From the NCBI GenBank assembly GCA_044892525.1, contig CM097888.1, forward strand, positions 92,628,001-92,692,000: a DNA stretch of 64,000 bases, given 5' to 3'. The DNA is from Schmidtea polychroa (Eukaryota). The notes under the pieces are model-generated. The model was given only the letters and a program-made list of their open reading frames with translations. It did not search any database and had not been told where the DNA came from. The position numbers were made by a program, and so were the translations under genes. The first letter of the stretch is position 1. Each line of letters starts with the position of its first letter. Shown here in pieces: positions 3,281 through 45,600 of this stretch.

Positions 3281-4210
3281 ATGTTTCGGTCTATGATTAA
3301 ATATTTTGTGCTGATTATATTCCTTTGCGGATATTTGAATGCGTCAAAATGCATTGACAGATATTGCGATATAACGCTGAATGCAAATAATGAAACGGTC
3401 TTTGATTGCTCCTTTGGCCAAATGGTTAATTCAACAGTCCAATGCGTTTATAACAAGCGCAATCAAATTATAACTCTGAGCACCTTCGATGATAATTATA
3501 TGTTCATAGATCGAATCGCTCCAGAAGCTTTCAATAGGCTCTTCTCTGGAATAGTTCTGGAAAAGATTTTCATCAATAAACTCCAGTTCAAATCCTTGAA
3601 CGGATCCGATTTTATGGCCCTATCAAATGTATCCAGTATCAAAATAGAAAATCCCATATCATTGGCATTTGATACGTTTCTAACTGTCACATCTCCTAGA
3701 AAGATTTTCTACTTAACGATATCGTGTATTAGTGGAAATAAAAACTCCTCATTTCAAGTCTTGCATTTCAGAACTCCAATGTGGAGAATATTCACTGAGG
3801 ATTGCCACAAGAAATTGGTTTGTCTTCATTCGACATGCAATTCTGCCAGGCTTGACAATATTGCAAAGGTTTCACCATCTACATTTTTTCAAGCTTTTCA
3901 ATTTCAATTGAGCTCTCACTCTTGTTTGTTGAATTCCTCCTGCAAATCTATTCAACATGAGAATCCTGTCAATGTTAAATCACCCAAACGTATCATAGTT
4001 GATGAGAAAGGAAAACAGGCCACCTATCCCAATACTGAGAAAGGGGCACACAGAGACAGTTATTATGACTTTTTAATGAATGTTTTATTGGTAATAATTG
4101 GCATTAATTCTGTCTTTATATTGGTAATCTGTGTCATTCTCATCGTGTGGAGGAGATCCATTTTGGCTTCCCTATCAACACGCAAACGAACATTAAGAAT
4201 TAGAGATTGA
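3281..4210 (+). CDS. Intronless type I membrane protein with degenerate LRR-like ectodomain (309 aa)
   Basis: N-terminal signal-like hydrophobic stretch (YFVLIIFLCGYLNA), Cys-rich cap, three LxxxxFxxL-like repeats (IAPEAFNRL, LNGSDFMAL, LAFDTFLTV), TM helix VLLVIIGINSVFILVICVILIVW, short basic tail; AATAAA downstream. Confidence 0.55.
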   Translation: MFRSMIKYFVLIIFLCGYLNASKCIDRYCDITLNANNETVFDCSFGQMVNSTVQCVYNKRNQIITLSTFDDNYMFIDRIAPEAFNRLFSGIVLEKIFINKLQFKSLNGSDFMALSNVSSIKIENPISLAFDTFLTVTSPRKIFYLTISCISGNKNSSFQVLHFRTPMWRIFTEDCHKKLVCLHSTCNSARLDNIAKVSPSTFFQAFQFQLSSHSCLLNSSCKSIQHENPVNVKSPKRIIVDEKGKQATYPNTEKGAHRDSYYDFLMNVLLVIIGINSVFILVICVILIVWRRSILASLSTRKRTLRIRD

Positions 4211-21600: not shown

Positions 21601-24600
21601 TGGTTAATTATATTTATATTCATATTAATTATATTCATATCTAATTTATATTTAATCACCTACAAGATATACATGCATACTATTCCGCAGCCGCCACCGC
21701 AGCCGCCACCGCCGCTTATGCAGCTGCCGCAAATATACTAATATACTAAGACTTACTTAGAGGTTATGAAATTCATGGTCCTGAATGACTTTTATTAATA
21801 ACATTATGGTATTTGATACGACTTTGTTTNNNNNNNNNNNNNNNNNNNNNNNNNNNNNNNNNNNNNNNNNNNNNNNNNNNNNNNNNNNNNNNNNNNNNNN
21901 NNNNNNNNNNNNNNNNNNNNNNNNNNNNNNNNNNNNNNNNNNNNNNNNNNNNNNNNNNNNNNNNNNNNNNNNNNNNNNNNNNNNNNNNNNNNNNNNNNNN
22001 NNNNNNNNNNNNNNNNNNNNNNNNNNNNNNNNNNNNNNNNNNNNNNNNNNNNNNNNNCTGCTACAATTTCAGGGAAGGAGAGCTCAAGGTGGATGCGTTC
22101 ATTCGAATCAACGAGATAAACCCCGGTCCAGTTAACAGTAAATATAACTTCATTGGTATCCAAGGAGGGGCCTGAGAATTTGACGGCTTCATAAAATCTC
22201 GAAAAGAGCATTGGCCATTTAAGTCTTGCAAAAGTCACAATTTCTTCTTTCAATTTTTCATTCGAAATCGAATCTTTACTAGAAGTTTCATTTAAATTCT
22301 TCACCGCCTGAAACCCATAGGTAAAATATCCCCATGACGAACTCGTCCTCAATTACTTGATTGAGTAGGCTCAGCCAATATTTTTTCTTTTCTTTTGTCG
22401 TTCCGATGACGGACCGAGGAAGGTATTTATGGAGAATTTCCTCCGTCAAATCTGTCACGTTGTCGATCCTCAGTTGATAGGCGCACAATTTGCACATGTC
22501 CTTATCCTGCAATTGAAATTGGAAATATAATGTTTGAACTTCAGTATTCACATACGGTATCACATCGATATTCACCGAATTTGATGCCCCTCATGACCTG
22601 ATGGTAAATGAGATCTGTAGCAACACTGTCCTCACAAGCGCTATGCCAGGGCGTGAAAATCTCTTTGCGAAAAAATAATCTCCACTGTGCTTTTGATTCT
22701 ACTTGACCTTTTTCTTTAGCGAATTGTTCGCATTGACTAATTGCATCCATTACATGATCTCCACCACTGCCAATTGAGGAGACCTGTTATAATGTAGCAA
22801 TTACTAAGCAAATAATTATCTCTTTCTATAATGCTCAACCTCAATAGGCGAAGAGCCATATCAGTAATCAGCGATTTATTCGCAGACATTGACGAGTTGC
22901 ATATATCATATCTGCTGGAGAAAGTTCGGATAGTCCCCAAGATAAGAAGGTAATAAAAGTAATAAAAGGTAAATAAGAACAAGTACAATACTAGAGGTAT
23001 GAGGAAATCAAGGAACAACTGACTGATGAAGAGAAATGGAAGCTCCTAAACAGAATTCTCCTCAGCTGTAGCTAAGGGATAACCATAATGAAAGCGCTGA
23101 TTGGAAAGCTCAAATTTATTATCAAGGCCAAATCAAAAGGAAATATTCCTCAAAGCAATTTATTTGTCTGTTGATATAATCATTGATAACATTTAATTGC
23201 CCTCCTTATCAAGGCTATCAAGCATCGAGGGGTCACAAATATATTGATTATTCTATCATGGCAATATTGATTGGTCATAAATATATTGATTATTCTAGCA
23301 GTGCAATATTGATTGGTTATAAATATATTGATTATTCTAGCAGGGCAATATTGATTGGTCACAAATATATTGATTATTCTATCATGGCAATATTGATTGG
23401 TCATAAATATATTGATTATTCTAGCAGTGCAATATTGATTGGTCATAAATATATTGATTATTCTAGCAGTGCAATATTGATTGGTCATAATTATATTGAT
23501 TATTCTAGCAGTGCAATATTGATTGGTCACAAATATATTGATTATTCTAGCAGGGCAATATTGATTGGTCATAAATATATTGATTATTCTAGCAGTGCAA
23601 TATTGATTGGTCATAAATATATTGATTATTCTAGCAGTGCAATATTGATTGGTCACAAATATATTGATTATTCTATCATGGCAATATTGATTGGTCATAA
23701 ATATATTGATTATTCTAGCAGGGCAATATTGATTGGTCACAAATATATTGATTATTCTAGCAGTGCAATATTGATTGGAAACCGAGATTGTATTTGTGTT
23801 AAGTCAATATTTTTATATCATCAGCAATTTCCAGCAAAATTTGGAGGCAGATCGGAGGNNNNNNNNNNNNNNNNNNNNNNNNNNNNNNNNNNNNNNNNNN
23901 NNNNNNNNNNNNNNNNNNNNNNNNNNNNNNNNNNNNNNNNNNNNNNNNNNNNNNNNNNNNNNNNNNNNNNNNNNNNNNNNNNNNNNNNNCTCTCCATCAA
24001 TTGTGAAAGGAAAATTCATGAAAATTATGGTTTCCCCCCAAAAAAGAAAATGTCCATTCCTCACCTCATTCTCAGATAAAATGGTCAGCTTGGAAAATGG
24101 GGCCAAAACAAAATATTGTGAAATCAAAACTGAATGTTACCCAAATTCTTACTTTATCAAAAATGGCAATGAAAAGAGAAAATCCGAATTGATCCTTCAG
24201 GCAAATTTTCTGTGACAATATCGAGCATAATTCTTGGGCCGTTGACGCAGAATCCGCGAAAATCGTCTCCGTGTTGCCGTTCATACAAGCCACGGCGAGT
24301 ATTATTGGCTCTTTGTGTTTGATCGCCTTCAATTCTAACCAACTTGGTGGCTGATTTCGAGTTCCGTTTGAAAATGTTCGTTGCAACCGGAAAACAATAA
24401 ATTTCGCGTAATCTTTGAAATTCGTTTGAATAAAATTGCGCAAGGTCCTGACGAACTTTTCGGTCGGCGCAAAACAGCCAATACACAGGTTCAATAGGAT
24501 CAGACCTGGAAAATGAAGGATTACAAAGGGATACACGGGTCCTTTTACATACAACTGTGAGCCATATCACACACACACACACACACATGACAACTAAATG

Positions 24601-27600
24601 CTCCTTATTAACATGACCATACTGGTCACAACTCTATAAGGGTTACAGATATGGTCATTATTGCATTTAAACTACTATCACAACCTCCAATAATGTGATT
24701 TCAACATGTCTGCTGCGACACTGACACGCAGTGAGAGACGCCTCATAAAGCTCACAAATACGTTTTGCAGCTGATTTTCAGCAATGCATTCTATGCGATT
24801 AGGTCTCCGTTTGCAAGTCTCCTGAAATGCAAGGCTCGATCAATTCATATTAGCCCTTGTACCATATGAATCTCAAGGGATAAAATCTAGTGATCATGGG
24901 GCGATGCATTCAGTAATGAATGCGCCTTATTTTGATAAAGTGAACCTATTTTTGAAACTTGGCAAGTTCATGAGTAGAAGGTTCATACATGAACAATAAA
25001 CCCTAGAAAGCTCTTCAATTCATACGCAATTCAGTAACTAGGCGCCATGAACCTGACTAATGGGAAATATTTATAATATACAATCTAGAAGGATTCCGCA
25101 TGAGCAATAAGAGTAAATACGACAAATATATTATTCCCACCTCTACTCACGCTATCCAACTTCCCATTGTCCACCAACTGTTTGCAGATCTGACAATAGA
25201 TCTCATCTCGCAGCTCTGGAATTAGAATGCCATTTCCAATTATAAAATGCAATTTCTCTAAGTTTGAAGTCGGCCTCTCTTCTAATAAAGAACTCAAAGT
25301 CTTCGTATTCAGCGGATTCTCAGCATCCTTCAGATGATTGACAACTTCATCTGTGAACTTTGACTTCTTTTTCAGGGTTAAGGACACGATGTTCTTTCTG
25401 TTTGTCCTCATTGAGAGATTCTCGAATGGCATTCCATNNNNNNNNNNNNNNNNNNNNNNNNNNNNNNNNNNNNNNNNNNNNNNNNNNNNNNNNNNNNNNN
25501 NNNNNNNNNNNNNNNNNNNNNNNNNNNNNNNNNNNNNNNNNNNNNNNNNNNNNNNNNNNNNNNNNNNNNNNNNNNNNNNNNNNNNNNNNNNGCCTGGAGT
25601 GTAAAATAAATAAAGAATTACTATATTTAGAAACAGTATAAATAAAAATTACTGAAAATAAAAGATAGGTTTTATTAATTACTATTAATAGATTTAGGTA
25701 ATATATAGGAATATTTGATAATACTATTACTATATATAGTAATTATAAAATTACTATTAATATAATAAATAATTATAATGTGATATAAATACTGGTTCAA
25801 ACGAGAACCAAGGGACGATAAAAACATAGACGAGAAAATTGACGATAACTTGCGGACGAGAAAAACTGTCAAGAAAGTTCGAAAAGAAATTGAAACAATA
25901 ATTTAGAAAATTATTATCACTTTGAAAAAAAAACGAAAACGTGATTAGAGAATCACTGTGTTAATTATTTAATTTAGAAGTGCAACATTTACGATCAAAT
26001 TAGTTCATTATTGTGATTAAAGAATCACTGTGTTTATTTTAATTAATTTCAACGCAACTCCGAGTTGTTTAAATTGGATATAAACAATAGCCCACACACG
26101 AAGAAATTCCGGCTCCAATTTCAAATCAATATCAACGGAGAAATTCTACTATAAATTGATCATCAAATTAGTTGAGACGAAAAAAAAAGGAAAATCAGAA
26201 ATTAGTCGAGAGCTAAGAATATTGTCGTCACAGAATTGTAAAGAAGATTGGTCTACAACATTGTTTAAACATTCAGGTAGATTTGATTATCAAGGGATAA
26301 ACTAGTATCCCGTTAAATAGGTAAAATTAAAGCGAACACAAAGTATAGATCTTTTACTTTAGTGTTCCCTGGGAGCCTCAAAATCATTCCCTCTTACTTG
26401 CCCAACTCTTTTAGTCGAATTGCGATCGTTGTGCTACACAGGAGCCATCGATTTCTTGCAGGCTGTGGTAAACAGTAAGGATTAATAAATCCGTTTTCTT
26501 GTACTCTTTGTACATATATTATAAAGTTCGTTTTGTAAATTATAAAATACATATTTATAAACAGAGAAAGAGTTTGTTTTGTTTTTTTAACTCAGTAATT
26601 TAAATATTAAACGCGCAACCACATTAAATATAATTTATTTATATTCATTTATATCTTTTTTCATTTATTTAACCTATTGGAGTCATTTGTGTTAGGATCT
26701 ATTGTCCCCGTTTTTCGATCTTAACATTTTGGTGAGCCCGACGTGATCTAATTTACGGGGGGAATAAGAATTTTATTTATAAGAGGCAAACATCTTTTTG
26801 AATCATTGAGTTAAGAAATAGAAGGGTAATAAATTTAAGACCAGGTAATAGAAACCAGCAAATAATGGCAGAGATAAATAATTTACAAAATTTAAACGAG
26901 AATAATTTACAAAATAATAATGTGCCAGTAGCTCAACCACCAGCGGTAGATTTTATGAGATACCCAACAATTCCGATTAAACCATTTAGTGGAAATCCAG
27001 GGGAGTTTCCAGAATTTATGTCCGAATATTTTCAGTTAGCCAGAGCATTAGGATTCCCGGAACCGGTAATGATTTTGAGATTACCTTTATATTTAAAAGG
27101 GATGGCACGGGAAATATATAACGATGTTATAATAGCCGAGCATCCAGTTGAATGGAATGTATTACGATTAGCATTACAAAATAGAATATTACCGGGGGAT
27201 GCAACTAGAGTGCTGAGACAACAGTTTTATAACAGGCGACAAAATTCGGGTGAGCATGTTGGGGAATTTTCATATCAAATAATGATGTTGGCAGAGAGAG
27301 CATTTGGTAATAGGGCAGCCTGGAATGATGCAACTAGAGCATTAGTAAAAGATCAGTTTTGGTCTGGGTTATCGTCAGCAATGAGAAATGCACTCAGTTT
27401 ACACATAGGAGATAATTTAGAGGAATTAACTCGTAAAGCGTGTTTAATTGAGAGTAGCATTGAGAAGTCAAACAATTTTGCAATTAGTAGCAACAAGTCA
27501 GACATTGAGTGTTTTAATTGTCATAAAAAGGGACATATGTCAAAAGATTGTAAAAGTAGGAATAATTCTCCAGGGGACAAATTATGTACCAAGTGTGGGA

Positions 27601-30600
27601 GAAATAATCATGTGGCATCAAACTGTAGAATTTCGGACCTAAATTGTGAGAAATTTTGTGGAAAATTTGGTCATATTATGCGTTCATGTCCACAAAATCA
27701 GTTATCTAATAACAATGGTAGTGGCAACAATGGTAATAATCGATCAAAGCAGACAACGTTTGCAGTAAATTCAGACCACAAATTAACGTATTTGCAGCAG
27801 CTTGAATTAGAAATTCAAGAAGTAAGAAACAGGTTAGCAAGGCTAACAACAAATGAAACTGATGGGTACGATGAAAATGAAGGTGTTTATATGACGTCAG
27901 CCAGAAAAAGGCGAAATAAAAATAATTATGTAGAACTTGAAGTGTTGATGCTTCAAGAGAGTCCAAGGGAGGACAAAGAGGAAAAGACTATGGTCATGGA
28001 ACCAGAGGTCTGTGAGGGTTTACAGGTTTCACCCAGGAAAAATCTAGTGGCTGTGGCAATGGAGCCAGAAGCCAACAGAGAAATAGAAGGTTTACCGGTT
28101 TCACCAGTCAAAAATCGTAAGGCTATGGACATGGATCCAGTAGTTAATGAAATTGTTCCAACAGAAGTTTTGGAAAAAAGATGGGCTTCGGTCATTAAGC
28201 CGGAAGTTCTTCTAGCCACATCATCCATGCGAGGTGAGTGTGGTAGCGAACCAATAAAGGTTAGAGAAGCATCGAAAGAGGAAAGAAATCCCATCGATGA
28301 CTGTAGAAAAATACTATTACGCAAAAGCGTATGGCAAAGAGAAATGAGACAGAAATTAGAAAATATTCGTTTAAACCCTGTTAATGAGAATGAGGTTGAC
28401 AAAGTAATGGATATCATATCAGAGTTAGACAGAAATGAGGAATATTATCCAGAATTGAGAGAAATTCTGAGAAATATTGGCCTAAATTGGAAACAAAGAG
28501 AGAATCTGGAGGATTCTACCATTTTTGTATCTTTCCCAAAGGGTTGTTTTCGTAGATATACAATTAACCCAAGTGAAAAGGTAGAAGTATTGGCAAAGAG
28601 AGTTTCGGTGGTAAAACCTCAACAGAGATGCAAACTATACTTATTGGGAGAAAGATTATTAGAGGGAGAAACCTTGTTAGATTGTGGTATACTACCAGGG
28701 AAAAATATGGTTATAAAAGCAAAGTTTCACAAGGAAACTGTTACAGTAGTGGACTTGGATAATGTCCTTACTATAAGCGAGATTGAAATTGATCAATTAA
28801 ATCAAATATCAGCCGTACCACATAGATTGGGAATTGAACTGATGAAAAACCCAAGAGATGGGGAAGCCATTAAGATGATAATGGATTGGATACTGGAGTT
28901 GCGAATCCCAGTAGATACTCTTAGAGAGATAATGCCATTGGTGGTGCCTTTAGTAAAAGAGACATCACAATTCCAGACACAAGCAAAGATGCTGTTGATT
29001 AAAAATGGACATGCTATTAGACATTTGGAAGGTAGACAAGGTCCAGTGATGTTAGATATCAGGATACCCAGGAGAGGACACCTGATACAACAATTCTCAT
29101 GTTATCATAGGGTAAAGAAACTGAGAAAAAGGATATCAGAAATATTAAAAGAGTCATTCCTAATAATGATACATGGTTGTCAGGTGGATGACGACGAATT
29201 TCTAGTAGATGTTGGATGTTTTCCCAATGAGGAAACAGTTGTATTAATATTACTGGTAGAGTTTCCAGAGGATGAATGGGCAACTTTGAGATTGCCAGAT
29301 AATGCTGAAATGGAGGATGAAACAGTACATCCAGAGCGAAAACATTTAGACGGGAATACTCATCAGGAACCCGTAACTACAGTAGATTTAGATGAAGAGA
29401 TAGATAAATATCTCAAGGAACTTGATAACACTGAAGACGAGTTGGTCGAAATATTTCCTACAGAGGAAGATAATGAAGTACAATTAAATCGAGATGAAAC
29501 AAACATCGGAGCTAGTACATCGCGACAAGCCGAGCCACCAAGAGAAAGAGTGAGCCCGAAATTAGTAGAGAATAAAAAGAAAAGGGAGAGAAGGGGTAGA
29601 CCGAGGAAAAGTCAAATGAACCCACCTCCAAGAGAACTTCTAAAACCAGTTACAATACAAAATGTAACTAAGCAGGCTCTAGCAGGGATAGCTAGCCAAA
29701 TCGATAAAAGCGTTGGAGACGCTAGTGATAAAACGGAAACATGGAAAAGACTGAATCAAATCTTACGACTGATTAAGCCCGATTGGCAAATCAAGAAAGA
29801 TAAAAGTGTTAATGTTGACAAAATTGCAGAAAAAGTCAAGAAAGCTATGGAAAAGATTCCAGGAAGCACTACGGAACAGGAGATGTTCGAAATAGCAGGG
29901 CAATTCATAGATGAAGGCCTGACGAAAGGGAAAATGATAACGATTCTAGCCTTAATGTTTAAAAATGCATTGAGCATAATTAAAGATGATTCGTCGAAAA
30001 TTCCAGCAGCCATAGACAAGCTGACTGATATCATCGAAGTGAATTTCAGAACATGGATGACTGAGCACAAGTTTTGGGATATAAAAGAAACGAAAGGAAA
30101 ATATGAATTAAATGAAGAATTGTTGACAGAAAATATTTCAAGTAGTCCACGGGGAACAGGTGGATTTACTAGTTGGATGATGATGTTGTTGGTAATGATG
30201 GGAATACTGCGACAGACAAATTCCCTAACGGCATATGATTGTAGTGAACCAATACTATCGCGAATCTACTCATTAGTTGACACAGTGGAATGCAAGGAAG
30301 CATATCCAGATAAAGTTGCAAAAAGGGAAGACGTAGAATATCATGTTTATCAGCAAACAGAGTTTTACAGAACCAGAGTGAGGGAATGTCGAATACAGAG
30401 AGCGACGTTCGAATATTACTGTGGATCGAATAGTTATTCAGCATTTTTAGGAGCTAAACTCATTCCTATACCGTTAATCATCCCACCAGAGGATTGTGTA
30501 AATGCTTTCCGGTCAAAAACAGTCAAAATAGATCAGGAGGTAACAATTACCGCGGAAGAGGGGAAAAAGTTGGGTATAACTATTACCCGGGGTGGACCGA

Positions 30601-33600
30601 TAGCAGAAGATGGTTCTTGTCATGGTAGAAAGAAAGTTAGAGGTTCTAATGTAGTAAGCTATGTGGTAACAGTTGAGGACTACACAGTAGAGCTGATAGA
30701 GTACGAAGGAACTTTCGAAGTATCCACGGGAAAAATGATGTCTCATCCAGAATGCAACGTGAAATATGGTTATTGTAAAACCAGTTTAGCAGTATTAACG
30801 TACCAATCAATGAGAGATTTTTGTGATTTAGGATACCTGAAAAAGGTAGTATTTTCAAGGCTAGATGGGAAGAGTTTTACGTCTCAGGATTCACAACAAA
30901 GTGGTTGGGGAGACAAGATAACTCACAAAACGAAAAAGGAAGTAGTACCGGAGAAAAGCACAGCAGTAGTATTAGTCTCCAAGGACCCAACAGATGCAAT
31001 TCGTTTAGTCAGAAAGAAACAGACAACGAAATGTGGTGTACCAATATTTGAAACCAACTACAAGGGAATATACTTAGCATACAAGTATGTTCCAGCAGCA
31101 GAATCATTGCATCTATCAGATATTAAAATAGCCAAGTATATCAATAATAAGATTGATTTCTTGTATCATGATCTGCAGAAACAATTATTAGATGTCTATC
31201 AGGAAGTGATCCTGAACGACTGTCGTTTGAATCGGGAAATAATACGGAATAGATTAGCAATATCTATAGCTAATCCGGATCTAATAATGCCAATGTTGAC
31301 AGAGGAAGGAACATTCGGCAGAATTTTGGGCGAAGCAATTTATAGCTATCAGTGCAAAGCAATAGAGGTGGAAATTACCAAATATGATCGATGTACATTG
31401 GAGTTACCAGTGAAATATAAAGGAAAATTGAGATTCCTGATGCCAGTATCACACCAGCTATTAAAGGAGGATACCTCACCATTGACAGCAATTTGCAATC
31501 CAGCAATGTCACCATTATACAAAATTAACAATATTTGGATTTCGTTGCCAGATAGAAAACCGCCTTCAAAACCAGTTGAAGTGCTTCAAGCGACAAAGTT
31601 AGAAACTAAAATGGAGTTTCAACCATTAAACGAGATGTCAAAAGGAGGAGTATATACTCCGGAAGATATTGAAGAAGCTCGGAGAGCAATCGTATTTCCC
31701 CAAATCAGAAATAGGGGAGTGACGGAAATAATAACAAGAATCTATCAATCATATGATGGAAAACCGGACTATAACTTATTATTTGGACCAGAACATTATA
31801 AACAAGCTGCATCCAATGTAATACGGAAAATCTGGGGTAGATTTACAAGCTTTGGCATTTTTGTAGCAGGATGTTCAGGTATATATGCAATAGTGATGAT
31901 ATTGAAAATAATCATATCGCAATTATTTTCTACCTATAGTATCTTCAAGATCGGGGGATGGTCTTGGAAGTTGCTACTAGGAATGTGTCCAGTTTGTGCA
32001 GATTTTGCAGTATTTCATCATCATAATAAAGAGATTAAAAGAATGAAGAGACAAACTATAAAGAAGCATGAGTTAATAATGTATGAACCTAGTCATCGAG
32101 ACGATGACAATTCTGACGAGGGAGGTAACCTAGAGGGCTATGAGACTTCAGACAACACCTCAATAAAACCAGACAACAAAAAACCGAAATTTCAAAATTT
32201 TGAAAACAGTACTTTACAACAGTACCCTGTTAAAGCAAAAAGGAGGAAACGGCAGGAGTGGCCCGTAAATTACTTGTCTCCATACGAGGGTAGAAAAAAG
32301 ATAATACCAGAACGAGTTGAAGAGGAAATGTTAAAGAGGCTCGAGTTTAGAACGAATACAGATATATCACCATCTACCTCATACCCAACGTATAAAATGA
32401 AGTTCGAGACAATGCCACCCTTGGGTACATCAGTATTTGAGATGGTACCGAAATATCCATTTAGCACGTTGGAACGGCTAAAGGAAGAGTATAAAGATGA
32501 AATAAAATCAGAAAATGACAAAGATAGTGATGATCAACAAAAGTTCAGAGACAATATTCGAGGAATCTCAACAATATTAATGGTCAATATGGGTAAAAAG
32601 ACTCATAAACCTACGATTAAACTAAAAGTTAACAGGCATACGGTACATGCCATTATTGATTCAGGATCAGATTTGACATTGATCGAAGCAAATTTATTAA
32701 ATGAAAAAGAATTACAAGCAATAGTGCCGACATTACTTGTTGCATCGGGAGCAAATGGACAACCTATCAATGTTATCGGAACATTAGATTGCGAATTAAG
32801 GTTGTGTGATCAAAAATTTAGACACGATATCAAGGTCACTAGACAATGTATGGCAGAATGTATCGTGGGAATGGATATATTGAAAAAGTTAAAAGATATT
32901 GTATTTGATTGTGCAACAGGTGAATTAGTGAAAATGACTGGTAGAAAACGGAAAACCTACAGTGTGGATGTAGTGTTTTTGGATAGAACGGTGACAATAC
33001 CACCGAGGACCGAAACAGTTTGTTTCGTAGCAACACACCAAGAGGTGGAAGGAGATGTTATTTTCGAACCCAGTGAGCAGTTCGTAAATAGGTATAAAAC
33101 GCCTATGGTGCAAAACTTGGCAACAGTACGGGGAGGAAGGATCCCGATTAGATTAACAAATCTAGCGAGCAAATCATTGAGATTATACCCAGAGACTAGA
33201 GTGGGTAAAGTGATACAACTTTCTAACATGCAGAAAGAGCATGAATCGATATTAGCAGTAGAAGAGGATGAACGAGATCCTGATATCGAATATTACGACG
33301 CACCGAGCTGCGATAGTAAAGCTTTATCTAGAAAAGAAAATATCAGAGTCAATCAATTATTACGTAAATATGACCAAGTTTTCGCAAAACACGAATATGA
33401 CTTAGGGCAAGTTAATATTCTAGAGCATGAGATTAAATTAACAGAAAATAAACCGATAAAAATTCGCCCGTACAGAATACCTCAAAGCATACAAGGGTCC
33501 GTTGACAAACAAATTAATGCAAAAATATAATATAATCAGACCCAGTAAATCTCCATATTCCTCACCTTTGGTGGTTGTAGCTAAAAGAGACGGCTCAGTC

Positions 33601-36600
33601 AGATTATGTAATGACTATAGGAAATTAAATGAACAAACAGTTAGTGATAATCACCCGCTACCTTTGCTAGACTACATTTATGATAAAATGAAAAATTCAA
33701 AGTTGTTTACTGTGATGGATGCACAGAAAGGTTTTTATCAAATAAAGATGAGCGAAGACTCAATTCCTATGACAGGATTTTCTACAAGTAGTGATCATTT
33801 TGAATACTTAGTAATGCCGTTTGGATTAAAAGGAGCCCCTCCAACTTTTCAGAGAGCAATGAATATCATGTTGATGGATGCACATCACGCAATGGTATAT
33901 ATAGACGATATTATCATCTTCTCGGAAGATTTAGATAAACATTTGGAACATCTAGAAGACATTTTCAAAAGATTGATTATGGCAAACCTGAAAGTAAAGC
34001 CAAGCAAATGCAAATGGGCAGAATCGGAAGTGATTTACGTGGGGCATGTAATATCACACGATTGCGTAAGACCAGATCCGGCGAACACGGATAAAGTAAA
34101 GAATTTCCCACAACCAGTGAATGTAAAACAAATCAAAGGATTTTTAGGGTTGACGGGATACTATCGGAAATTTATACGAAATTTTTCAGCAATAGCTTTT
34201 CCTCTAACTACCTTAGAAAAGAAAGGTATAAAATTTTTATGGGGAGAAGATCAGCAACAGGCATTCGATAAGTTAAAAGATGCACTATGCAAACCACCAA
34301 TTCTACGATTTCCAGATTTTAAAAGACAATTCATGGTGATGACCGATGCATGCACAAGAGGTATAGGTGCCGTTTTGGGACAGAAAGACGAAATTGGCGA
34401 TGAGTACGCAGTAGCATATGCAAGTCGTGGATTGAAGCCACACGAAAAAAGTTATGCTGTAATAGAATTGGAAGCATTAGCATTAGTATTTGCAGTGGAA
34501 AAATTTAGTCATTACCTATGGGGCAGAAAGATAATTTTCTATACGGATCATAGACCATTGCAATGGCTGTTAAAACATAGGGATGAAGCATCAAAATTAG
34601 TAAGATGGGCATTGAGATTACAGCCATATAATATCGAAATAGTATATCGTAAAGGTAAAGCTAATGGTAATGCAGATGCATTATCACGAATGGAACAAGA
34701 GCCTGAGTTAGAAGATATAAAGGAAGGAAGATTAGAAGGAACAATCTTCATGCTAACAAGAGAGGCTAACACTTTGAGCGATATAGTAGAAGCGCAAAAA
34801 AATGATGACGAAATCAATATGATCAGACAAGCTATAGAAGCAAAGGCCATACCAAATGAATTTCAGAAATATTGGGAGAGACATAAAGATAAATTCATAT
34901 TGGAAGAAGGGCTAATCAAATACGTTGAATCAAGGGATAATGTAATATTAGTACCAAAGAAATACAGAGAATCACTATTATTACAATACCACGACGGAGC
35001 ACTGGGAGGACATCTCTCAGTTAGACATACACTGTCAAGATTAAAAATGAAATACTTCTGGCCAGATATGAAAGATGATGTTAAAAAGTGGTGTCAATCA
35101 TGTAAGATATGTATAACCAGAAGGAACACAGGCAGGAAACCACATGTTCCATTGAAACCAATGCCAGTACCGTCCTCGCCAATGGAGATGACTGCTATGG
35201 ACGTACTAGGGCCGTTTAAAGAATCAAAAATGGGAAATAAATTTATCATAGTATTTTGCGATTACTTAACCAAGTGGCCCGAAGCATTCCCAATTCCGAA
35301 TCATAAGGCAGACACAATTGCCAGAATCTTTGTAGAACAAATAGTATTCAGATATGGTGTTCCAACAAAATTACTTACCGACAGAGGAAAGGATTTCATG
35401 AGTAATCTGTTAAAAAGTATAAATGATTATTTTGGTATTTTAAAATTAAATACCTCACCATACCATCCACAGACGGATGGATTGGTAGAAAGGTTCAATG
35501 GAACCTTGGCAAACATGTTATCATCATACGTAAACTCAGGTCAGACGGACTGGGATGTACACATACCATCGTGTTTGTTTGCGTACAGAAATGCTGTTCA
35601 TTCAGTAACAGGAGAAACACCTTTCTATCTGATGTATTTAAGGCATAACAAGATGCCAGTAGATCTTATATTTTATCCGAAAGCTTCACAGAATTGTGAT
35701 GAGGAAAATTACTTATTCGAGATGAGAGAGAGAATGCAAGAAGCCTGGGAAAAAGCAGGTTTGAACATTCGTTATAACCAAGAAACGATGAAGGAATATC
35801 ATGATCGTAAAGCGAAGGATCATGGGTTTTTGGTAGGAGATTATGTCATGTTAGAAGGACATTACAACAAAAAAGGTTTATCTCCAAAATTAATGAGAAA
35901 TTACAAAGGGCCGTATCAAATTTTGAAAGTCACAGAAACAAATTTAGTCTTGCAGTTAGTGACAAACAGAAAAGCAGAACCGATAATGGTTCATGCAAAC
36001 AGATGTAAAAAGATAGCCCCACCAGAAAAGGAGAAACCAAAATCAGAAATCGATGAATTCGAAATAGATAAGAAATCGAAAAAGAAAACGTTGGAATCAT
36101 ACAAAAGTATCCTAAAAGGACAACCGGAACGATACCCTTTACGATCTCGGCAAGTACCGAAAACAGTTACATTTCTAGCAGTGATTAGTTGTGTTATGAT
36201 GATTGGACAAGCATTCGAGGTATTCACACCTAAAGCCAGTCAACATCCAGATATCGAATATCAACGAACAGATAGAGCGTTCAGATTTCATTTAACGAAT
36301 ATACAATGGCATAGATATGATTTATATTTGGTAGCTGCTGAAAGAGGGATATCATTTCACTTGAATACATGGGATCGAGTAAAAGTAATAGAAGGACTTA
36401 TGCCGAATACAAGTTATCTATTAGAAATCAAAACATTTTTTGCAGATCCAAACGTTTTTGCAGACGGAGGAGATTGTGTAGATAAAGCAGCATGGATTTT
36501 GAAGACTGCAAAATTTACCAAAAAAGTAGAGATTTCATATCTCGGGCAGATAGTAAGATTTACTCATCCACGGTGGAAAAGAAATGACACATCTTCCACT

Positions 36601-39600
36601 CACGATTGGAGGACGAATAATAAAATTGCGCTAATCGTCATATTAGAAAACGACCAGCGAGTCGAGAGATTAGTGCTCAACCATGCGTATCTAAGTAAAA
36701 GATGGAAAATCAAACCAGATACCGTGATAAAAGCGAATATTTCGTATTTGGAATTTACGGAGAGAACCGGTTGGTATACAATATATCAAGAAATAGTAAA
36801 TCTAATACCTCCCACAAAGGGAGAACTAACTAGCAAAGAAGGAAAGGCTAGATTAGTAAATATTCCTGGTTGTAAAGGAATAAATGCTTTAGATTGGTTT
36901 AGTATTAGAAAGGTAGCGAGTGTAAAACAGCCCCGCATAACTAAAATAATTAATAATTGTAGTTGTCAAAATACGTTAAAGGGGGCAGCGAGGGAGAAAA
37001 CGCCAACATGGCTATTGTTAATTATGATAGGGGGAGTAATTTGCATGATTTTAATTTTGCTCTTAACCACCCTATGGATGTTTAGATTAAATATACGAGA
37101 TATGCGTTATTGGGAAAATATTTACGAAACCGAGGTATAGGGGGAAAGTCTCACCATATACTAGGAAGTGTAAATATATATAGTTATTTATTTTATATAT
37201 ATGTTATTTATATTAGTATGTAGACTAATGTGGGCTCAAATGAGCATTGGTAAAATCAGACATCAGCGTATGTCGACTTTGGTTACCCTGCGAGGGTCTA
37301 TCACGAAAGTGATAAAAGCTGTTAATTATCTTATTTTTAGAAAAATGAATTATAGCAGAGAATCAAAGCCGCCAGTCAAGGCAAATCGACGACACCCATT
37401 AGCAACGTACAATTCCCAAACTCGAGTGGAAACTGAAGTGTATAGCACCTATAAAGAAGAGTATGTATATCGGTTCATCGGAACCACGGTAGCAGCAAAG
37501 ATGAATCACCTCACCTCAAACTATTGGTATTATCCCAGGAGAGTGGATATTCCAAATGACTTCAAATTTCCAGGAGGGCCTCGAAGGCAAATGATGGTAA
37601 CGGTTATAAATAACCAAGGTAGATTAAAATTGGCGGAACTATGTAGAGAGTATGGTTCAAGTCCGAAAGTAGAAAACATTTGGATCCATGCGATCAATAG
37701 GCCATTTACTGTGTTTATGGCGGGTTTAGAGCTACCTGTTGAATTAGAAAAACAGTGTACTCTGGAGATATACCACGCTGATGGACGAGAACGGAATATT
37801 ATGATCCAGGCAGCGGCGGTGGACACCATAATCGTAGTGGAAATCTTAGACTTCAGGAAACCATACTCTATAGTTAGCAAAAACGAGCCAACTTGGATTT
37901 ATAATGTAAATGAAGCTGATATACAGCAGTGTAAATCATTCGTGAGGAAGAAGTTAACCAAAGCCGAGGAGGATGAGGCTACAATTTTCATATCGGCAGG
38001 TTTTGCCAAATCCCGAATCGAATTGAAGGAGACAATTATCCAAATCGCAATTATGGATATGAGAGGAAATAATTTATTGAGTGCGATAGTGACTCCCAGA
38101 GATCCAGTAAAACATTACCAAACGCACCAATATAAGTTAAAAGAACCCGACATTAGAGGAAATCTCGATGAAGACGATTGTCATCATCTGATAAGAAAGA
38201 TCTGCGATAAGAAAATACTGGTAGGTATTTTACTTAAAGATCTGATCTCGGTAGCCAATCTACCAGTGCAGCGAATTTTGGGTATTCGTGACCTTTCGGC
38301 AAATAAACTATTGGAAACCAGAGGAGTCCCAAAGATCCATGGTCATTACAGTTTGGGATTCCTGACAAAAACTTTCCTGCGTACGGTTCCCGGAGAACCA
38401 AGGAATTTAGTGGTCACCAATGAGGCACTGGCAATACGTGCTGTTTATTTACATATCAGAAACGAATGGTTAGACCATATCACGATACCTCAGGAGGAAT
38501 TCATTTCCGCAACTACAGCAGCGATAGTTGAACAGGAAATGACGCAGAAGAGGAGATTACCTGAGCAACCATCTACATCAGAGCAACCCCAGCCCAAGAG
38601 GAAATCACCTGTGGATCTACCACCGCCTCCAGCCATATCTATTGGAGAAGAAGATGAATATGAAACATGTGCTAGTGAAATAGAGACAGCAAAATCACCT
38701 AAACAACCATCAGGAGCTGCCTATCAGCCAAAGGATAAATCGGATAATGCGGTCAGAAAAGAAAATCCAGAAGGAGGCAAGGTGAAAAAGATGTTAAAGA
38801 AAATGTTACCCATTAAAAGAGACAAATCGAAGTTAAAGTTGAAGAAAGTTGTTAAACCGTCGGAAGGAACGACAAAAGATACACCCAGCGGTTCGGAAGA
38901 TAGGACTATTAAACCTCAAAAGATATTCAGCGAACCAGATGATGACATTATGGAAGTTGCCTTTCAACCTCCGGTTAAGGAGATGCAGGAAGCAATAAAG
39001 GTTAAATCTGAACCTGTGGTAAGGCAGAAATTGTTAAAGATTGCCAAGGAGAATATCATCAAGAAACCAGTTTCGGTTGATGTGGACGGTTTCGAACCAA
39101 TGTGGTACAAACGTCCGGATAGTAAATGGAAACCCAGAGCGAAGGAGTATGACTGCCAACCAGTCACGAGAATGGCAGTCAATAATAACCAAAAATATGA
39201 TGTTTATGACGTAGACGGGATCCCTTACGTGGTGTCTACAGTCATATTAACAAGTGCTCTGGATGGTAAGCCTTTAGCAGTGAGTTTTGAGCCAGATGTC
39301 TTACAGAAGAGGAAGAAGAAGTTGTTGCAGCAATACGTCATTGCGAATAGCTACAGCACAAAGGAAGTGCACCTTTACAAAGTTCCAGACCCAGATCCCG
39401 ATGATCTGGATATCTAACCCAAGAGCGTTGCCACCCAACATGTGTCGTCAAATTCAAATGTGTACAAAATAACTTAACTATTATTTGAGTTGTGTTTTTC
39501 AGTGTTCTGACATTCATTATTTGTGATCTGAAACATTTATATTTTTTGTGTTTTGTCTTATTTGATTAATTTTTATGTTTTATTGTAATACTGTTTACGA

Positions 39601-42600
39601 AAAGCCTTTCCTTAGTCTTGGTTTTGTCTTGTTTTCGAGACGAAAATCTTTTAGGGGGTAAGACTTGTTAGGGATAGGCCTGGGGCCTGGAGTGTAAAAT
39701 AAATAAAGAATTACTATATTTAGAAACAGTATAAATAAAAATTACTGAAAATAAAAGATAGGTTTTATTAATTACTATTAATAGATTTAGGTAATATATA
39801 GGAATATTTGATAATACTATTACTATATATAGTAATTATAAAATTACTATTAATATAATAAATAATTATAATGTGATATAAATACTGGTTCAAACGAGAA
39901 CCAAGGGACGATAAAAACATAGACGAGAAAATTGACGATAACTTGCGGACGAGAAAAACTGTCAAGAAAGTTCGAAAAGAAATTGAAACAATAATTTAGA
40001 AAATTATTATCACTTTGAAAAAAAAACGAAAACGTGATTAGAGAATCACTGTGTTAATTATTTAATTTAGAAGTGCAACATTTACGATCAAATTAGTTCA
40101 TTATTGTGATTAAAGAATCACTGTGTTTATTTTAATTAATTTCAACGCAACTCCGAGTTGTTTAAATTGGATATAAACAATAGCCCACACACGAAGAAAT
40201 TCCGGCTCCAATTTCAAATCAATATCAACGGAGAAATTCTACTATAAATTGATCATCAAATTAGTTGAGACGAAAAAAAAAGGAAAATCAGAAATTAGTC
40301 GAGAGCTAAGAATATTGTCGTCACAGAATTGTAAAGAAGATTGGTCTACAACATTGTTTAAACATTCAGGTAGATTTGATTATCAAGGGATAAACTAGTA
40401 TCCCGTTAAATAGGTAAAATTAAAGCGAACACAAAGTATAGATCTTTTACTTTAGTGTTCCCTGGGAGCCTCAAAATCATTCCCTCTTACTTGCCCAACT
40501 CTTTTAGTCGAATTGCGATCGTTGTGCTACACAGGAGCCATCGATTTCTTGCAGGCTGTGGTAAACAGTAAGGATTAATAAATCCGTTTTCTTGTACTCT
40601 TTGTACATATATTATAAAGTTCGTTTTGTAAATTATAAAATACATATTTATAAACAGAGAAAGAGTTTGTTTTGTTTTTTTAACTCAGTAATTTAAATAT
40701 TAAACGCGCAACCACATTAAATATAATTTATTTATATTCATTTATATCTTTTTTCATTTATTTAACCTATTGGAGTCATTTGTGTTAGGATCTATTGTCC
40801 CCGTTNNNNNNNNNNNNNNNNNNNNNNNNNNNNNNNNNNNNNNNNNNNNNNNNNNNNNNNNNNNNNNNNNNNNNNNNNNNNNNNNNNNNNNNNNNNNNNN
40901 NNNNNNNNNNNNNNNNNNNNNNNNNNNNNNNNNNNNNNNNNNNNNNNNNNNNNNNNNNNNNNNNNNNNNNNNNNNNNNNNNNNNNNNNNNNNNNNNNNNN
41001 NNNNNNNNNNNNNNNNNNNNNNNNNNNNNNNNNNNNNNNNNNNNNNNNNNNNNNNNNNNNNNNNNNNNNNNNNNNNNNNNNNNNNNNNNNNNNNNNNNNN
41101 NNNNNNNNNNNNNNNNNNNNNNNNNNNNNNNNNNNNNNNNNNNNNNNNNNNNNNNNNNNNNNNNNNNNNNNNNNNNNNNNNNNNNNNNNNNNNNNNNNNN
41201 NNNNNNNNNNNNNNNNNNNNNNNNNNNNNNNNNNNNNNNNNNNNNNNNNNNNNNNNNNNNNNNNNNNNNNNNNNNNNNNNNNNNNNNNNNNNNNNNNNNN
41301 NNNNNNNNNNNNNNNNNNNNNNNNNNNNNNNNNNNNNNNNNNNNNNNNNNNNNNNNNNNNNNNNNNNNNNNNNNNNNNNNNNNNNNNNNNNNNNNNNNNN
41401 NNNNNNNNNNNNNNNNNNNNNNNNNNNNNNNNNNNNNNNNNNCAGCTTCCTCTGCAGCTTTCAAAATGTCTTGCTTATTGAACTGTCGGCCAAGAGATTG
41501 ATATATTTTTGTCATTATAGGAACTGAATTCGCTTGAGATGTCTGACTCTGGTTCACCAAAGGTTCAGGTAGATCTTTCATAAACCTCAGAATGGCTATC
41601 CACACTGCCAGTGCTGACTAGAGAAGAAGATATTAAAACAATCATATTACTGGACTGCAATATATATACTATTTGATGGTTGGGGTTCGAATGAAACAGC
41701 AAAGGTTTCCTTAAAGGTTTTCGTGAGAAATTCGGATCAGAATCCTTCTGGAAATAAGTGGCAGCAAATTTTGTGAATGTGAATTCTGAGACGTCCTCAT
41801 CGAGAATGTTGACCAAATAATCAGGCATCGTTGTAGCAAATACCGAGCTGACATCATTGAGAGCGTTCATCCGTGACATCTCCAGATCCTGGAATGCTCT
41901 CGGTGCATGGGACAATGAATTTGAGAGAGATTTCACGCTGTAGCCATCAATCGAGCCGAAAATCTCATCAAGCTAAAATAAGAAAAGAAATCAAATTTCT
42001 GTGGAAATTTCATTCTAGTTCAATTAGGCGTTGTCAGTAATTTGATTCAGTGTCCATGAATTATTAATGAAATCAAGCTGAATTATGAATGAGCAAGAGT
42101 TGTTTTACCATCTCTGATTCATCCACTGGCTGGTTGCGCCTCCTCTCTGCCTCTGCAATCCTCTGTTTCATGTTCCTATTGTCCTTGATTTGCTGCTGGG
42201 CCTCTGCTAGTGACTGGCTGTGGATTGCATTGAGCCGCACCTGAATTGCAATATACAGCATCATCACTCGGCATCCTTGCTAGAACATTTCATAGCTACT
42301 CAAGCATTACAAGAAACCAGGAAAAGAGAAAGTACGCCAACAAAAGAAATAAAATCACCGAATTTTTATTTCAAATATCAAATGTTAAATGAAATCATTT
42401 ATTTATTAGTGAGACTGGAGGGGAAGCTTTATGAATTTGGTTGTACTTTCTGTTATTGTTAGGCACTTAATGCCCCTATATAACTGAGAGCCCCCCCCCC
42501 CACCCTCCCCTCCTCCTCCGTTCCTTATATCAATGCTACATGGGAAATTATCAGTAGAGAATCCTTTGATAGAAATCTGTAACGGAGAAAATGTTTTTAT

Positions 42601-45600
42601 TCCGATCGAATATAAAATAAATTTTACGTTCACCCACCAATCTAGCACCGAGGGTATCCCAAGCAAAGGTTTATGGAATGAAGATTAAAGGGTCATAATT
42701 ATAATGTCACCCAGATTAAGGAAATCATATAAATTTGGTTACTCNNNNNNNNNNNNNNNNNNNNNNNNNNNNNNNNNNNNNNNNNNNNNNNNNNNNNNNN
42801 NNNNNNNNNNNNNNNNNNNNNNNNNNNNNNNNNNNNNNNNNNNNNNNNNNNNNNNNNNNNNNNNNNNNNNNNNNNNNNNNNNNNNNNNNNNNNNNNNNNN
42901 NNNNNNNNNNNNNNNNNNNNNNNNNNNNNNNNNNNNNNNNNNNNNNNNNNNNNNNNNNNNNNNNNNNNNNNNNNNNNNNNNNNNNNNNNNNNNNNNNNNN
43001 NNNNNNNNNNNNNNNNNNNNNNNNNNNNNNNNNNNNNNNNNNNNNNNNNNNNNNNNNNNNNNNNNNNNNNNNNNNNNNNNNNNNTTTTTTCTGCCTCCTC
43101 ACTAGCCTTTTCCTCCGACATTTGATTTTTTAATAAGTTTACATCTTTTTTCTTTAAGCTGAGAGCTTCCTTCAATTTCATGTCCTAACAAAAAGTAATG
43201 CATATGAAAAACAAAAGTGATGCATATGCATTGCATAGACAATGCATTACATAGGCAATGCATTAGCATTTACAATATTTTGATAAATTTACTTCTTTCT
43301 TTAACACTTTGAATTTTTTCAAAGCACAAAATTTGCGAATTTGAGATTGTATCTTAACAATTGCTTTCTTCTTTTGTTGAAGCTTATCCCTGGTCAAGCG
43401 TCCTCTGCAATATCTCTGGACATTACGTATAAAACCTTTAAGGTCTTTCAATTTTTTGCTAGCGATCTTTGCCCTGAAACTGGCTTGTAAAAGGCAGAAA
43501 CCTTTCTTAATCTAAACAAGTAAAAAAGTAAAAGTATTATTGGACCATTCGTGAACCTTTAGAAATTTTCGACGAGTCAGTTTCATTCTTACGAATGTTT
43601 GAATCTGTATTGCAGCAGATCTTTTCTTTAGAAACCGAGTTCGATGGTAATATTTCCTCCACGTCTTTTGAATGAGTATAATCCGATTGCTGAGCGCCTT
43701 GTCTCGCAGGTCTTCCAACATAACGTCTTGCGCATCCTGAAACGAAGCAACTTAGAGATATTTCTAGTGCAATTTATAAATGACCTTGAGGAAAAGCTTT
43801 GTCTTCCCAATCTGATATCCGTTTGGATCGAGAATATTTTTGCATATCAGTTTAGTGATCTCTCTGCTATCCTTGCACCTGAAACTTGACTGGATTCCGG
43901 GCACTAGAATCCTATAACGGTCAATGAAATCTGGAAATTCATGGCGAATCGGGTATCCGGCCTTCCTGATACGAATTGTCTCCATCATGCCCGAATAACG
44001 CAGCTGCCTCAAACAGAGAGACCTGTCGAATTCCAGTTTCTTCTTCAACTCATTTGGTTTGATGCACCTGACAAAAAATGGCTCTCTTTCCATCAGTATT
44101 TTCATCAATGAATCCAAAGACTTTCTAAATTGGATTCCCAGCGTAGGCGCTCGCTTCCTCGTATCAAATCCCTATAGGAAACATTTCCCAAATTATTGGA
44201 AGCCATTTCATAAGTCAATTAAAATAACTAGAAAATAATTCTGATACAAAGGGGGGGGGGGTCAGTGAGATCTTTTTATTATTAGTGGTTGGCCTCAATT
44301 ATGATAAGAGGATATCTCTTTCATAATGTAAGACCTTTCACAAATATGATGGCCAGCAAGTCTTTCAAATATTCTTTTCATTAATAAATCAACCAAAAGT
44401 GAGAGCAATTGAAAAATATTTTTTAACAGAAAAATTTATTAATTAAAAATAATAATGGCCAATCAAAATGTTGCTAGAGAAGTGGCTGTCGGATCTGCTG
44501 AAATCAGCTCCACTAACCAATAGGACAAAGTCTCCAATTTCTTACCGGACCAACAGAAAATATGAACCGATAAAAAAATAACAACAAAGGAATTATTGTT
44601 TACAATGACCATGTAAGGTGTGAATAGGTAAGGTGTGAATAGGTAAGGTGTGAATGGGTATGGTGTGAATGTGTAAGGTGAATAGGTAAGGTGTGAATGG
44701 GTAAGGTGTGAATGGGTATGGTGTGAATGGGTAAGGTGAATAGGTAAGGTGTGAATGGGTAAGGTGTGAATGGGTATGGTGTGAATGGGTAAGGTGAATA
44801 GGTAAGGTGTGAATGTGTAAGGTGTGAATGGGTAAGGTGAATGGGTAAGGTGTGAATGTGTAAGGATTGCATATGTAGTGTGAATAGGTATGGTGTGAAT
44901 GGGTAAGGTGTGAATGGGTATGGTGTGAATGGGTAAGGTGAATAGGTAAGGTTAATAGGTAAGGTGAATAGGTAAGGTGAATAGGTAAGGTGTGAATGGG
45001 TAAGGATTGAATATGTAGTGTGAATGGGTATGGTGTGAATGGGTAAGGTGAATAGGTAAGGGGAATAGGTAAGGTGAATAGGTAAGGTGAATGGGTAAGG
45101 TGTGAATGGGTAAGGTGTGAATGGGTAAGGGGAATAGGTAAGGTGAATGGGTAAGGTGTGAATGGGTAAGGTGTGAATAGGTAAGGTGTGAATGGGTATG
45201 GTGTGAATGGGTAAGGTGTGAATGGGTAAGGTGTGAATGGGTATGGTGTGAATGGGTAAGGTGTGAATGGGTAAGGTGTGAATGGGTAAGGTGTGAATGG
45301 GTAAGGTGAATGGGTAAGGTGTGAGCAGGTAAGGTGTGAATGGGTAAGGTGTGAATGGGTAATGTGTGAATGGGTAAGGTGTGAATGGGTAAAGTGTGAA
45401 TGGGTAAGGTGTGAATAGGTAAGGTGTGAATGGGTAAGGTGTGAATAGGTAAGGTGTGAATGGGTAAGGTGTGAATGGGTAAGGTGTGAATGGGTAAGGT
45501 GAATGGGTAAGGTGTGAATGTGTAAGGTGAATAGGTAAGGTGAATAGGTAAGGTGAATAGGTAAGGTGAATATGTAAGGTGTGAATGGGTAAGGATTGAA

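Follow-up and report, generated by a model that had tools for sequence, protein, structure and literature searches.

The 64,000-nucleotide stretch of Schmidtea polychroa DNA analysed here (the window) contains one damaged member of a young Ty3/gypsy family, a 15.2-kb LTR element on the plus strand, which on balance we explain as a GAG-ENV-POL errantivirus akin to the planarian Burro elements and more compact than these, with cargo that probably aids an enveloped mode of spread. A preliminary description of the same DNA had taken the architecture as a whole to be undescribed. This does not hold for the core layout gag-UBL-BCL2-env-pol, which is already published for planarian Burro elements (PMC6431247), but two components do appear to be undescribed in print, as far as the literature available to us goes: (i) an FN3 membrane protein with a PDZ-type tail in planarian elements, and (ii) an exonuclease ORF present in intact-looking and disabled forms across sister families.

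The anatomy and family assignment of the element are close to certain. The order protease (PR), reverse transcriptase (RT), RNase H (RH), integrase (IN) in Pfam searches, together with TG...CA LTRs, a primer-binding site, a polypurine tract and a short target duplication, identifies a member of the Metaviridae, the inner features being read in the window and the outer ends and duplications in other copies (Table 1). LTR identity, sequence and Pfam matches likewise bear out the LTRs, priming sites and gag/PR/RT/RH/IN motifs that had been reported. The paired LTRs of the window copy (25592-26712 and 39685-40805) show no mismatch over the visible 1,121 nt; their outer ends run into N on both sides, so that neither junction of this copy, and hence no target-site duplication, can be read. 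The primer-binding site is one that we take to be for tRNA-Trp. The extra coding sequence had been described as lying in open frame, which is not the case in the window copy: it carries a frameshift near the start of RT, has lost an in-frame segment behind the zinc knuckles (near 27655), and is divided into three long frames, 26802-33530 (2,242 aa), 33460-37140 (1,226 aa) and 37174-39417 (747 aa, stop to stop). At the RT site, 19 of the 20 other copies fetched have a single open frame and the twentieth an in-frame stop.

Table 1. Features of the 15.2-kb element in the window (positions in the window).
Feature	Position	Strand	Evidence or remark
5' LTR, visible part, first bases in N	25592..26726	+	identical to 3' LTR; CA end as in other copies
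Primer-binding site, 18 nt	26730..26747	+	sequence; same site after LTR in families A, A', B, C
gag: first ATG, capsid region, three CCHC zinc knuckles	26865..27690	+	PF00098 1.7e-8
Helical bundle 1 and ubiquitin-like domain 1	28290..28730	+	AF2 pLDDT 70-90; NEDD8 profile 4e-5; Foldseek ubiquitin
Helical bundle 2 and ubiquitin-like domain 2, internal	28779..29255	+	ISG15 profile 1e-4; AF2; Foldseek
Divergent Bcl-2-like domain; AT-hook-like basic motif before it	29658..30092	+	family profile; AF2 model
env internal signal peptide	30162..30224	+	hydrophobic helix in AF2 model; position kept in all families
env, class III (mononegavirus/gB-type) fusion glycoprotein, C-terminal membrane anchor	30225..31946	+	PF24664 5e-81
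Aspartyl protease	32604..32894	+	PF00077 6e-7
PR-RT intervening segment	32955..33242	+	homologous to Burro segment called dUTPase-like; ~1e-15 to Burro-like element
Frameshift private to window copy, near RT start	33460..33530	+	frames; comparison with other copies
Reverse transcriptase and RNase H	33580..34629	+	PF00078 4e-31; PF17917 8e-35
Integrase: zinc-binding domain, core, C-terminal part	34951..36039	+	PF17921 1e-19; PF00665 3e-8
Second membrane protein: signal peptide, ectodomain, TM, short tail	36160..37140	+	hydropathy; AF2; Foldseek
Two FN3 domains of second membrane protein	about 36253-36804	+	AF2 all-beta model; Foldseek
TM of FN3 membrane protein	36997-37098	+	hydropathy
Second ORF	37345..39417	+	N-terminal domain, exonuclease fold, lysine-rich middle, conserved C-terminal domain
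ISG20/REX4-type exonuclease fold in second ORF	about 37891-38502	+	profile search; alignment with sister enzymes
Polypurine tract	39653..39665	+	sequence; same in other copies
3' LTR, visible part, last bases in N	39666..40805	+	identical to 5' LTR; comparison with other copies

The family numbers at least 40 copies in the genome, and tandem copies occur. One gag-env-pol frame of 3,516 codons is found in 10 of 151 genome matches, the LTR pairs are 98.9-100% identical in 18 of 20 copies, and 4-bp target duplications flank 14 of the 20, although six of these lie within AAT tracts, where they are less telling. The frameshift and deletion of the window copy, as well as the tandem copies, might suggest a chimeric assembly, or unrelated insertions nested in one another, as the origin of the 15-kb unit. 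However, independent insertions are collinear over the whole length, each with its own flanks and duplications, and the order of the modules is common to families at 87%, 48% and lower identity, so that the chimeric reading is refuted and its probability negligible. Independent copies bounded by LTRs contain the modules again, as do five further families. Since they are thus recurrent, supported by profile or fold searches and under purifying selection, the objection that the unit is a chimera fails. Against the sister family at 87% identity, dN/dS indicates purifying selection on all cargo modules, with values of 0-0.05 for gag, 0.12 for the Bcl-2-like domain, 0.04 for env, 0.25 for the FN3 ectodomain, 0.04 for the exonuclease fold and 0.04-0.07 for the second ORF. 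An RT-RH-IN tree of sequences from this genome, with long branches and three other gypsy sequences as outgroup, groups five families with a Burro-like element in a single clade, with support 100/100.

Planarian Burro elements have been described as encoding gag, Ubi/SUMO-like, BCL2-like, in-frame mononegavirus-like env and dUTPase-like modules (Arkhipova & Yushenova 2019, PMC6431247), and interference with apoptosis and ubiquitination has already been proposed for them (PMC6431247). Burro / GYPSM1 shares with the window element a three-CCHC gag, Ubi/SUMO-like and BCL2-like domains, env and the organization as one giant polyprotein; in the window element, too, env lies in frame between the BCL2-like domain and the protease, and a Ubi/SUMO-like domain is present. 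Burro is reported to exceed 30 kb with its LTRs and to have an ORF1 of about 4,900 aa, that is, about twice the size of the element described here, so 'giant', the word chosen in the preliminary description, is appropriate for 15.2 kb in relative terms only. The MATH, ankyrin, TRAF and BIR-RING modules of Burro are absent from the window element in Pfam searches. A Burro-like element of the same genome, which belongs to the same clade, does contain MATH, BIR/RING and ankyrin modules, and likewise finishes with a signal, an ectodomain, a TM segment and the PDZ pattern; neither the FN3 ectodomain nor the exonuclease-fold ORF found a profile match in the three Burro-like loci examined. Elements of GAG-ENV-POL type and 14.5-18 kb have been catalogued in Schmidtea (Chary & Hayashi, eLife 2026, PMC13524379). 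One of them, Smed_errantivirus_4 of Schmidtea mediterranea, agrees with the window element in gene order, env type and size (14.9 kb listed), and 74 of 101 env residues, counted by eye, are identical; at about 73% env identity the two represent distinct families. PMC13524379 gives no tRNA site for Smed_errantivirus_4, and the words exonuclease, Bcl, ubiquitin, fibronectin and accessory are absent from its main text. The window element also agrees with the HSV/gB-type errantiviruses in being a gypsy element of many copies whose class III env follows gag and precedes pol.

Profile or fold searches support each of the cargo assignments made previously (UBL, Bcl-2, FN3 and pseudo-exonuclease), with Foldseek on AF2 models yielding ubiquitin and tandem FN3 matches. 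For gag, a sister family gives a Retrotrans_gag match as well (2.6e-8). The alignment reveals no C-terminal di-glycine of conjugatable modifiers in the ubiquitin-like domains, which, judged by their sequence, are integral ubiquitin-fold domains. The Bcl-2-like domain forms seven helices in the AF2 model, and a profile built from seven family members matches Bcl-xL and BFL-1/A1 at 3e-6; the domain alone has no Pfam match, it is missing from the Foldseek matches listed, which ubiquitin filled, and its canonical BH1/BH2 signatures are gone, with the BH1 Gly and BH2 Trp residues alone left in the window family. The adjoining env signal peptide, which would double as a tail anchor for the Bcl-2 domain, has a hydropathy below the 1.6 threshold in the window copy and family B and above it in families C and D. 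The fusion protein is kept at full length in every family examined, in frame between gag and protease, and hydropathy places its TM at aa 1681-1715. The PR-RT intervening segment, taken alone, has no PDB match.

The protein encoded after integrase gives tandem FN3 as its best Foldseek match (3e-7), and the matches listed are FN3-containing chains, the model itself being modest (mean pLDDT 59, TM-scores about 0.3). Its library matches are FN3 proteins or relatives, and by sequence the ectodomain has no Pfam fn3 match. The tail ends in a class I PDZ-binding pattern, which also ends the intact polyprotein in families A/A', B, C, D and E/F and in the Burro-like element, terminates both library relatives, and survives where the remaining tail cannot be aligned; in a comparison set, just 8 of 261 other ORFs end in this way. 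The ectodomain is the fastest-evolving folded module, with 60% identity versus 93% for env.

The exonuclease fold of the second ORF matches ISG20L2 (2e-14) and ISG20 (1.5e-10) in profile searches. Its DEDDh set (D-E-D-H-D) is mostly lost in the window family: the Exo I pair is Ser and Gly, the Exo II Asp and the catalytic His are both replaced by Leu, and the last Asp by Glu. Such substitutions suggest that the enzyme is likely disabled as an RNA-trimming exonuclease in the window family; the fold looks disabled in families A, B and D, while sister families E and F retain D, E, E, H, D and look intact. An exonuclease-fold ORF also follows pol in the Ty3/gypsy elements Juno and Vesta of bdelloid rotifers (Rodriguez et al. 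2017, PMC5408684), but their ORF3 is reported as of DEDDy/RNase D type with intact residues and env replaced, whereas the ORF described here is of DEDDh ISG20/REX4 type and stands beside env. Its ATG directly follows a splice-acceptor-like site, with acceptor-like context in families A, B and D; a spliced joint was seen in none of the contigs examined. The ORF was not seen in four family-C copies examined and is therefore not essential to the clade.

How might these parts act together? Hydrophobic segments are located where the proposed topology requires them, and we consider it quite probable that the polyprotein is threaded through the ER by means of two internal signal peptides and two membrane anchors, in the manner of alphavirus or flavivirus polyproteins. 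Cleavage by host signal peptidase and by the protease of the element would then release four sets of products: (i) Gag together with the Bcl-2 domain, which the env signal peptide would hold on the membrane; (ii) the fusion protein; (iii) the enzymes; and (iv) a surface protein of type I with a tail that may dock on PDZ scaffolds. The cargo likely keeps the producing cell alive and places the element at cell contacts. In this scheme the Bcl-2 domain would restrain apoptosis, the FN3 protein would assist the fusion protein in attachment or localisation, and the second ORF, expressed from spliced RNA, would provide a nuclear RNA-binding regulator of genomic RNA. For the last of these we propose as functional analogue CERV, the accessory protein of the C. 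elegans gypsy element Cer1, which is made from spliced RNA and regulates the genomic RNA of Cer1 in this manner (Sun et al. 2023, PMC10309623). Taken singly, each of these roles has even chances at best. The infectivity put forward in the preliminary description, and the roles it gave the cargo in apoptosis, ubiquitin signalling and RNA surveillance, are hypotheses.

Movement of the element between cells, presumably as an enveloped particle, appears somewhat probable. The FN3 ectodomain evolves fastest among the folded modules, a pattern that a decoy or interference protein would be expected to show, and would fit an element that replicates solely inside the expressing cell and uses env and the FN3 protein for assembly at internal membranes or for receptor interference, by which related elements would be kept from entering again. 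Yet it is difficult to see why every family examined should keep a full-length fusion protein, at dN/dS 0.04, if no membranes were fused, and a site of action at the plasma membrane is indicated by the PDZ pattern, which makes replication confined to one cell rather unlikely. Cargo kept mainly for its benefit to host stem cells, rather than for the element's own need, would be in line with the protection of stem cells by the Burro1 IAP (B-IAP), as cited in PMC13465017. This form of mutualism is quite improbable, given that selection was measured between transposing subfamilies, that the modules are part of the polyprotein with which young, dispersed copies replicate, and that a single domesticated locus was not encountered. 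Both ideas about the cargo could hold together.

Returning to cell-to-cell spread, it is tempting, if doubtful, to speculate that in planarians the GAG-ENV-POL elements, with Burro among them, amount to infectious retroviruses with two glycoproteins. They would combine, in one membrane-threaded polyprotein, a class III fusogen with an FN3 attachment or junction-targeting protein bearing a PDZ-docking tail, and would add a regulator of Rev type whose ancestor was a captured ISG20/REX4 nuclease turned RNA binder within the clade. The Burro layout is the basic scheme of an entire clade of planarian elements, 13-30 kb in length, among which accessory modules are exchanged. The second surface protein and the exonuclease ORF offer small, testable handles on env-bearing gypsy elements outside insects, and touch on the question of how such elements reach other cells and avoid killing stem cells.

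On its sequence, the element can be classified as a GAG-ENV-POL gB-type errantivirus: its envelope gene, coding for a Monjiviricetes-type fusion glycoprotein (Pfam, 5e-81), is placed between gag and protease, and zinc knuckles, protease, RT, RNase H and integrase are likewise matched by Pfam. Three long frames occupy the unit of ~15.2 kb, and its LTR repeats at 25592 and 39685, with N at both outer ends, are identical at 1,121 of 1,121 comparable bases. The preliminary description of an LTR-bounded element with gag, pol enzymes and extra coding sequence is borne out, except for the open frame, since the window copy is broken: it alone, when compared with 20 fetched copies, has a frame change near the RT start and an in-frame deletion near 27655.

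Features of the element and of the surrounding window
Feature	Position	Strand	Basis or remarks
5' LTR	ends at 26726	+	sequence
Primer-binding site	begins 26730, just after 5' LTR	+	sequence
Second ORF	37345..39417	+	
3' LTR	begins 39666, polypurine tract immediately before	+	sequence
Open frame	3281-4210	+	309 codons; without Pfam match
Second, broken Ty3/gypsy element	16234-18882	-	Pfam matches in four stop-separated frames: zinc knuckle, protease, RNase H, integrase; no RT match and no env (Pfam)
Penelope-like element	47838-51098		604-bp inverted arms, 99% alike
Penelope-like frame	48514-50451	-	645 aa; RT + GIY-YIG
Tandem array	23231-23778		42 bp period
Tandem array	44613-45801		15 bp period, strongly G-skewed
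Tandem array	52304-53129		51 bp period
Tandem array	56064-57237		149 bp period

Probing the 781-Mb own genome with 801 bases of env gave 121 candidates, with 40 scored matches at 90-100% identity; a Bcl-2-region probe yielded 151 matches, ten of them within a 3,516-codon open frame. Twenty of the 40 env matches were fetched for comparison; all are collinear with the window element, and the RT site is read through in 19/20. LTR pairs (98.9-100% identical) were detected in 18/20 and 4-bp duplications at 14/20, six of these 14 within AAT tracts. Pair identity, duplications and collinearity therefore argue for a young family and against a chimeric 15-kb unit, which we reject. AAT microsatellite tracts flank 6/20 copies (loci L002, L005, L007, L008, L010, L020), hinting at a possible target preference. 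Near 100.9 Mb of contig G000:C2, three copies lie head-to-tail at 14,218-bp spacing with LTRs in common; on contig G000:C3, a second-ORF piece is amplified in tandem with a ~2.9-kb period (~106.49-106.52 and 107.05-107.20 Mb; some 40 among the matches listed).

The architecture also recurs beyond family A, to which the window copy belongs, the same module order being present in the related families A', B, C, D, E and F. Identity to the element is 87% over ORF1 for A', and 48% over cargo and env but 32% in the second ORF for B. By alignment, the ubiquitin-like unit and the FN3-like domain are each single in D; ectodomains are longer in C, E and F, and the four copies of C examined showed no second ORF. 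A BIR search of the own genome also found a Burro-like element, the polyprotein of which comprises gag, helical and ubiquitin-like units, MATH, a Bcl-2-like region, env, pol and ankyrin repeats, followed by TRAF and BIR-RING as separate ORFs. Its tail 3' of the ankyrin repeats (L120-L122) consists of signal, ectodomain, membrane anchor and PDZ-binding pattern; the FN3-tail profile did not match this ectodomain. In a 13-row tree built on RT-RNase H-integrase (E and F left out; long branches flagged by the tool), the Burro-like element falls into one group with A, A', B, C and D (100/100) versus three other gypsy sequences.

The ubiquitin-like and Bcl-2-like domains proposed earlier are supported by profiles and predicted folds. 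With a profile of eight family members, the first ubiquitin-like domain matched NEDD8 (4e-5), the second ISG15 (1e-4), and the helical domain before env BFL-1/A1 (1e-4; Bcl-xL at 3e-6 with a focused profile). The AF2 model comprises a helical bundle plus beta-grasp, twice, then a seven-helix domain, and Foldseek returned ubiquitin chains for it. Both ubiquitin-like domains lack a terminal di-glycine in the alignment, and in the element's family BH1 and BH2 have degraded signatures. Dozens of Pfam Bcl-2 matches in the own genome lie in short frames (~150-180 codons), apparently another repeat type.

The FN3 membrane protein is likewise supported: 3' of integrase, hydropathy predicts (i) a signal-like segment, (ii) an ectodomain, and (iii) a strong membrane anchor, the ectodomain model is all-beta, and tandem FN3 domains are matched (best 3e-7). 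Five proteins came up in a search of 1.84 billion representatives: two are relatives with the same layout, and three have FN3-type repeats, two of these being assigned via Pfam and one by inspection. Intact polyproteins of the Burro-like element and of A/A', B, C, D and E/F, related lineages and thus not independent trials, end in [S/T]-x-[V/L] (five tripeptide types), which we take to be the class I PDZ-binding pattern, compared with 8/261 other ORF ends; both library relatives terminate likewise. Class I PDZ-binding patterns occur in HTLV-1 Tax and HPV E6.

The second ORF carries an ISG20/REX4-type fold (ISG20L2, 2e-14), and the alignment shows Exo I acidic pair, Exo II aspartate and histidine all replaced in the element's family, in agreement with the pseudo-exonuclease initially proposed. 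Families E and F (L146, L151, L153) have an intact-looking DEDDh-type catalytic set. The simplest reading would be that an active nuclease was captured and that A, B and D later lost catalysis but kept the fold. In these three families the ATG lies 2-4 bases past a pyrimidine-rich AG, which suggests a spliced RNA; no spliced joint was found in the contigs searched. A literature search with incomplete coverage of key works found no published description of the FN3-PDZ protein or of the ISG20-type ORF, and both appear undescribed in print. Rotifer gypsy elements carry intact, DEDDy-type exonuclease ORFs (PMC5408684), in contrast to the ISG20/REX4-type with replaced catalytic residues.

The modules are under purifying selection. 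Versus A' (a single pair per module by the Nei-Gojobori method, with dS close to saturation in places), env has a dN/dS of 0.04, the Bcl-2 domain 0.12 and the FN3 ectodomain 0.25. Values for the two ubiquitin-like domains, from few changes at low dS, are 0.19 and 0.43, and the second ORF's folded parts give 0.04-0.07. Along the element, dS alternates between 0.1-0.2 and 0.7-2, which points to recombination between subfamilies.

The architecture had been thought undescribed, which does not hold for its core. Burro combines gag, Ubi/SUMO-like, BCL2-like, in-frame mononegavirus-like env and dUTPase-like modules (Arkhipova & Yushenova 2019, PMC6431247). Chary & Hayashi (PMC13524379) catalogue six GAG-ENV-POL errantiviruses from Schmidtea, 14.5-18 kb in length; number 4, Smed_errantivirus_4, has 74/101 env residues in common with the element, and this similarity points to a Schmidtea-like planarian as the probable host. 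Hence the suggested mobile lineage with captured host modules is upheld in part: profile and fold matches support the domains, whereas the core layout was in print for Burro.

Given the order signal, env, anchor, enzymes, signal, FN3, anchor, tail, Gag, Bcl-2 domain and enzymes would be cytosolic and both ectodomains (env, FN3) would lie in the lumen, cleavage presumably being effected by signal peptidase and the element's own protease. The Bcl-2 domain may be tail-anchored via the env signal peptide, the FN3 protein may dock on PDZ scaffolds and either aid attachment or steer budding, and the second-ORF product, made from spliced RNA, could be a nuclear RNA-binding regulator. For Burro, interference with apoptosis and ubiquitination was proposed by Arkhipova & Yushenova 2019 (PMC6431247), and stem-cell protection is reported for the Burro1 IAP (as cited in PMC13465017). 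The element is predicted to work like a compact Burro, yet by size and module set it is not Burro.
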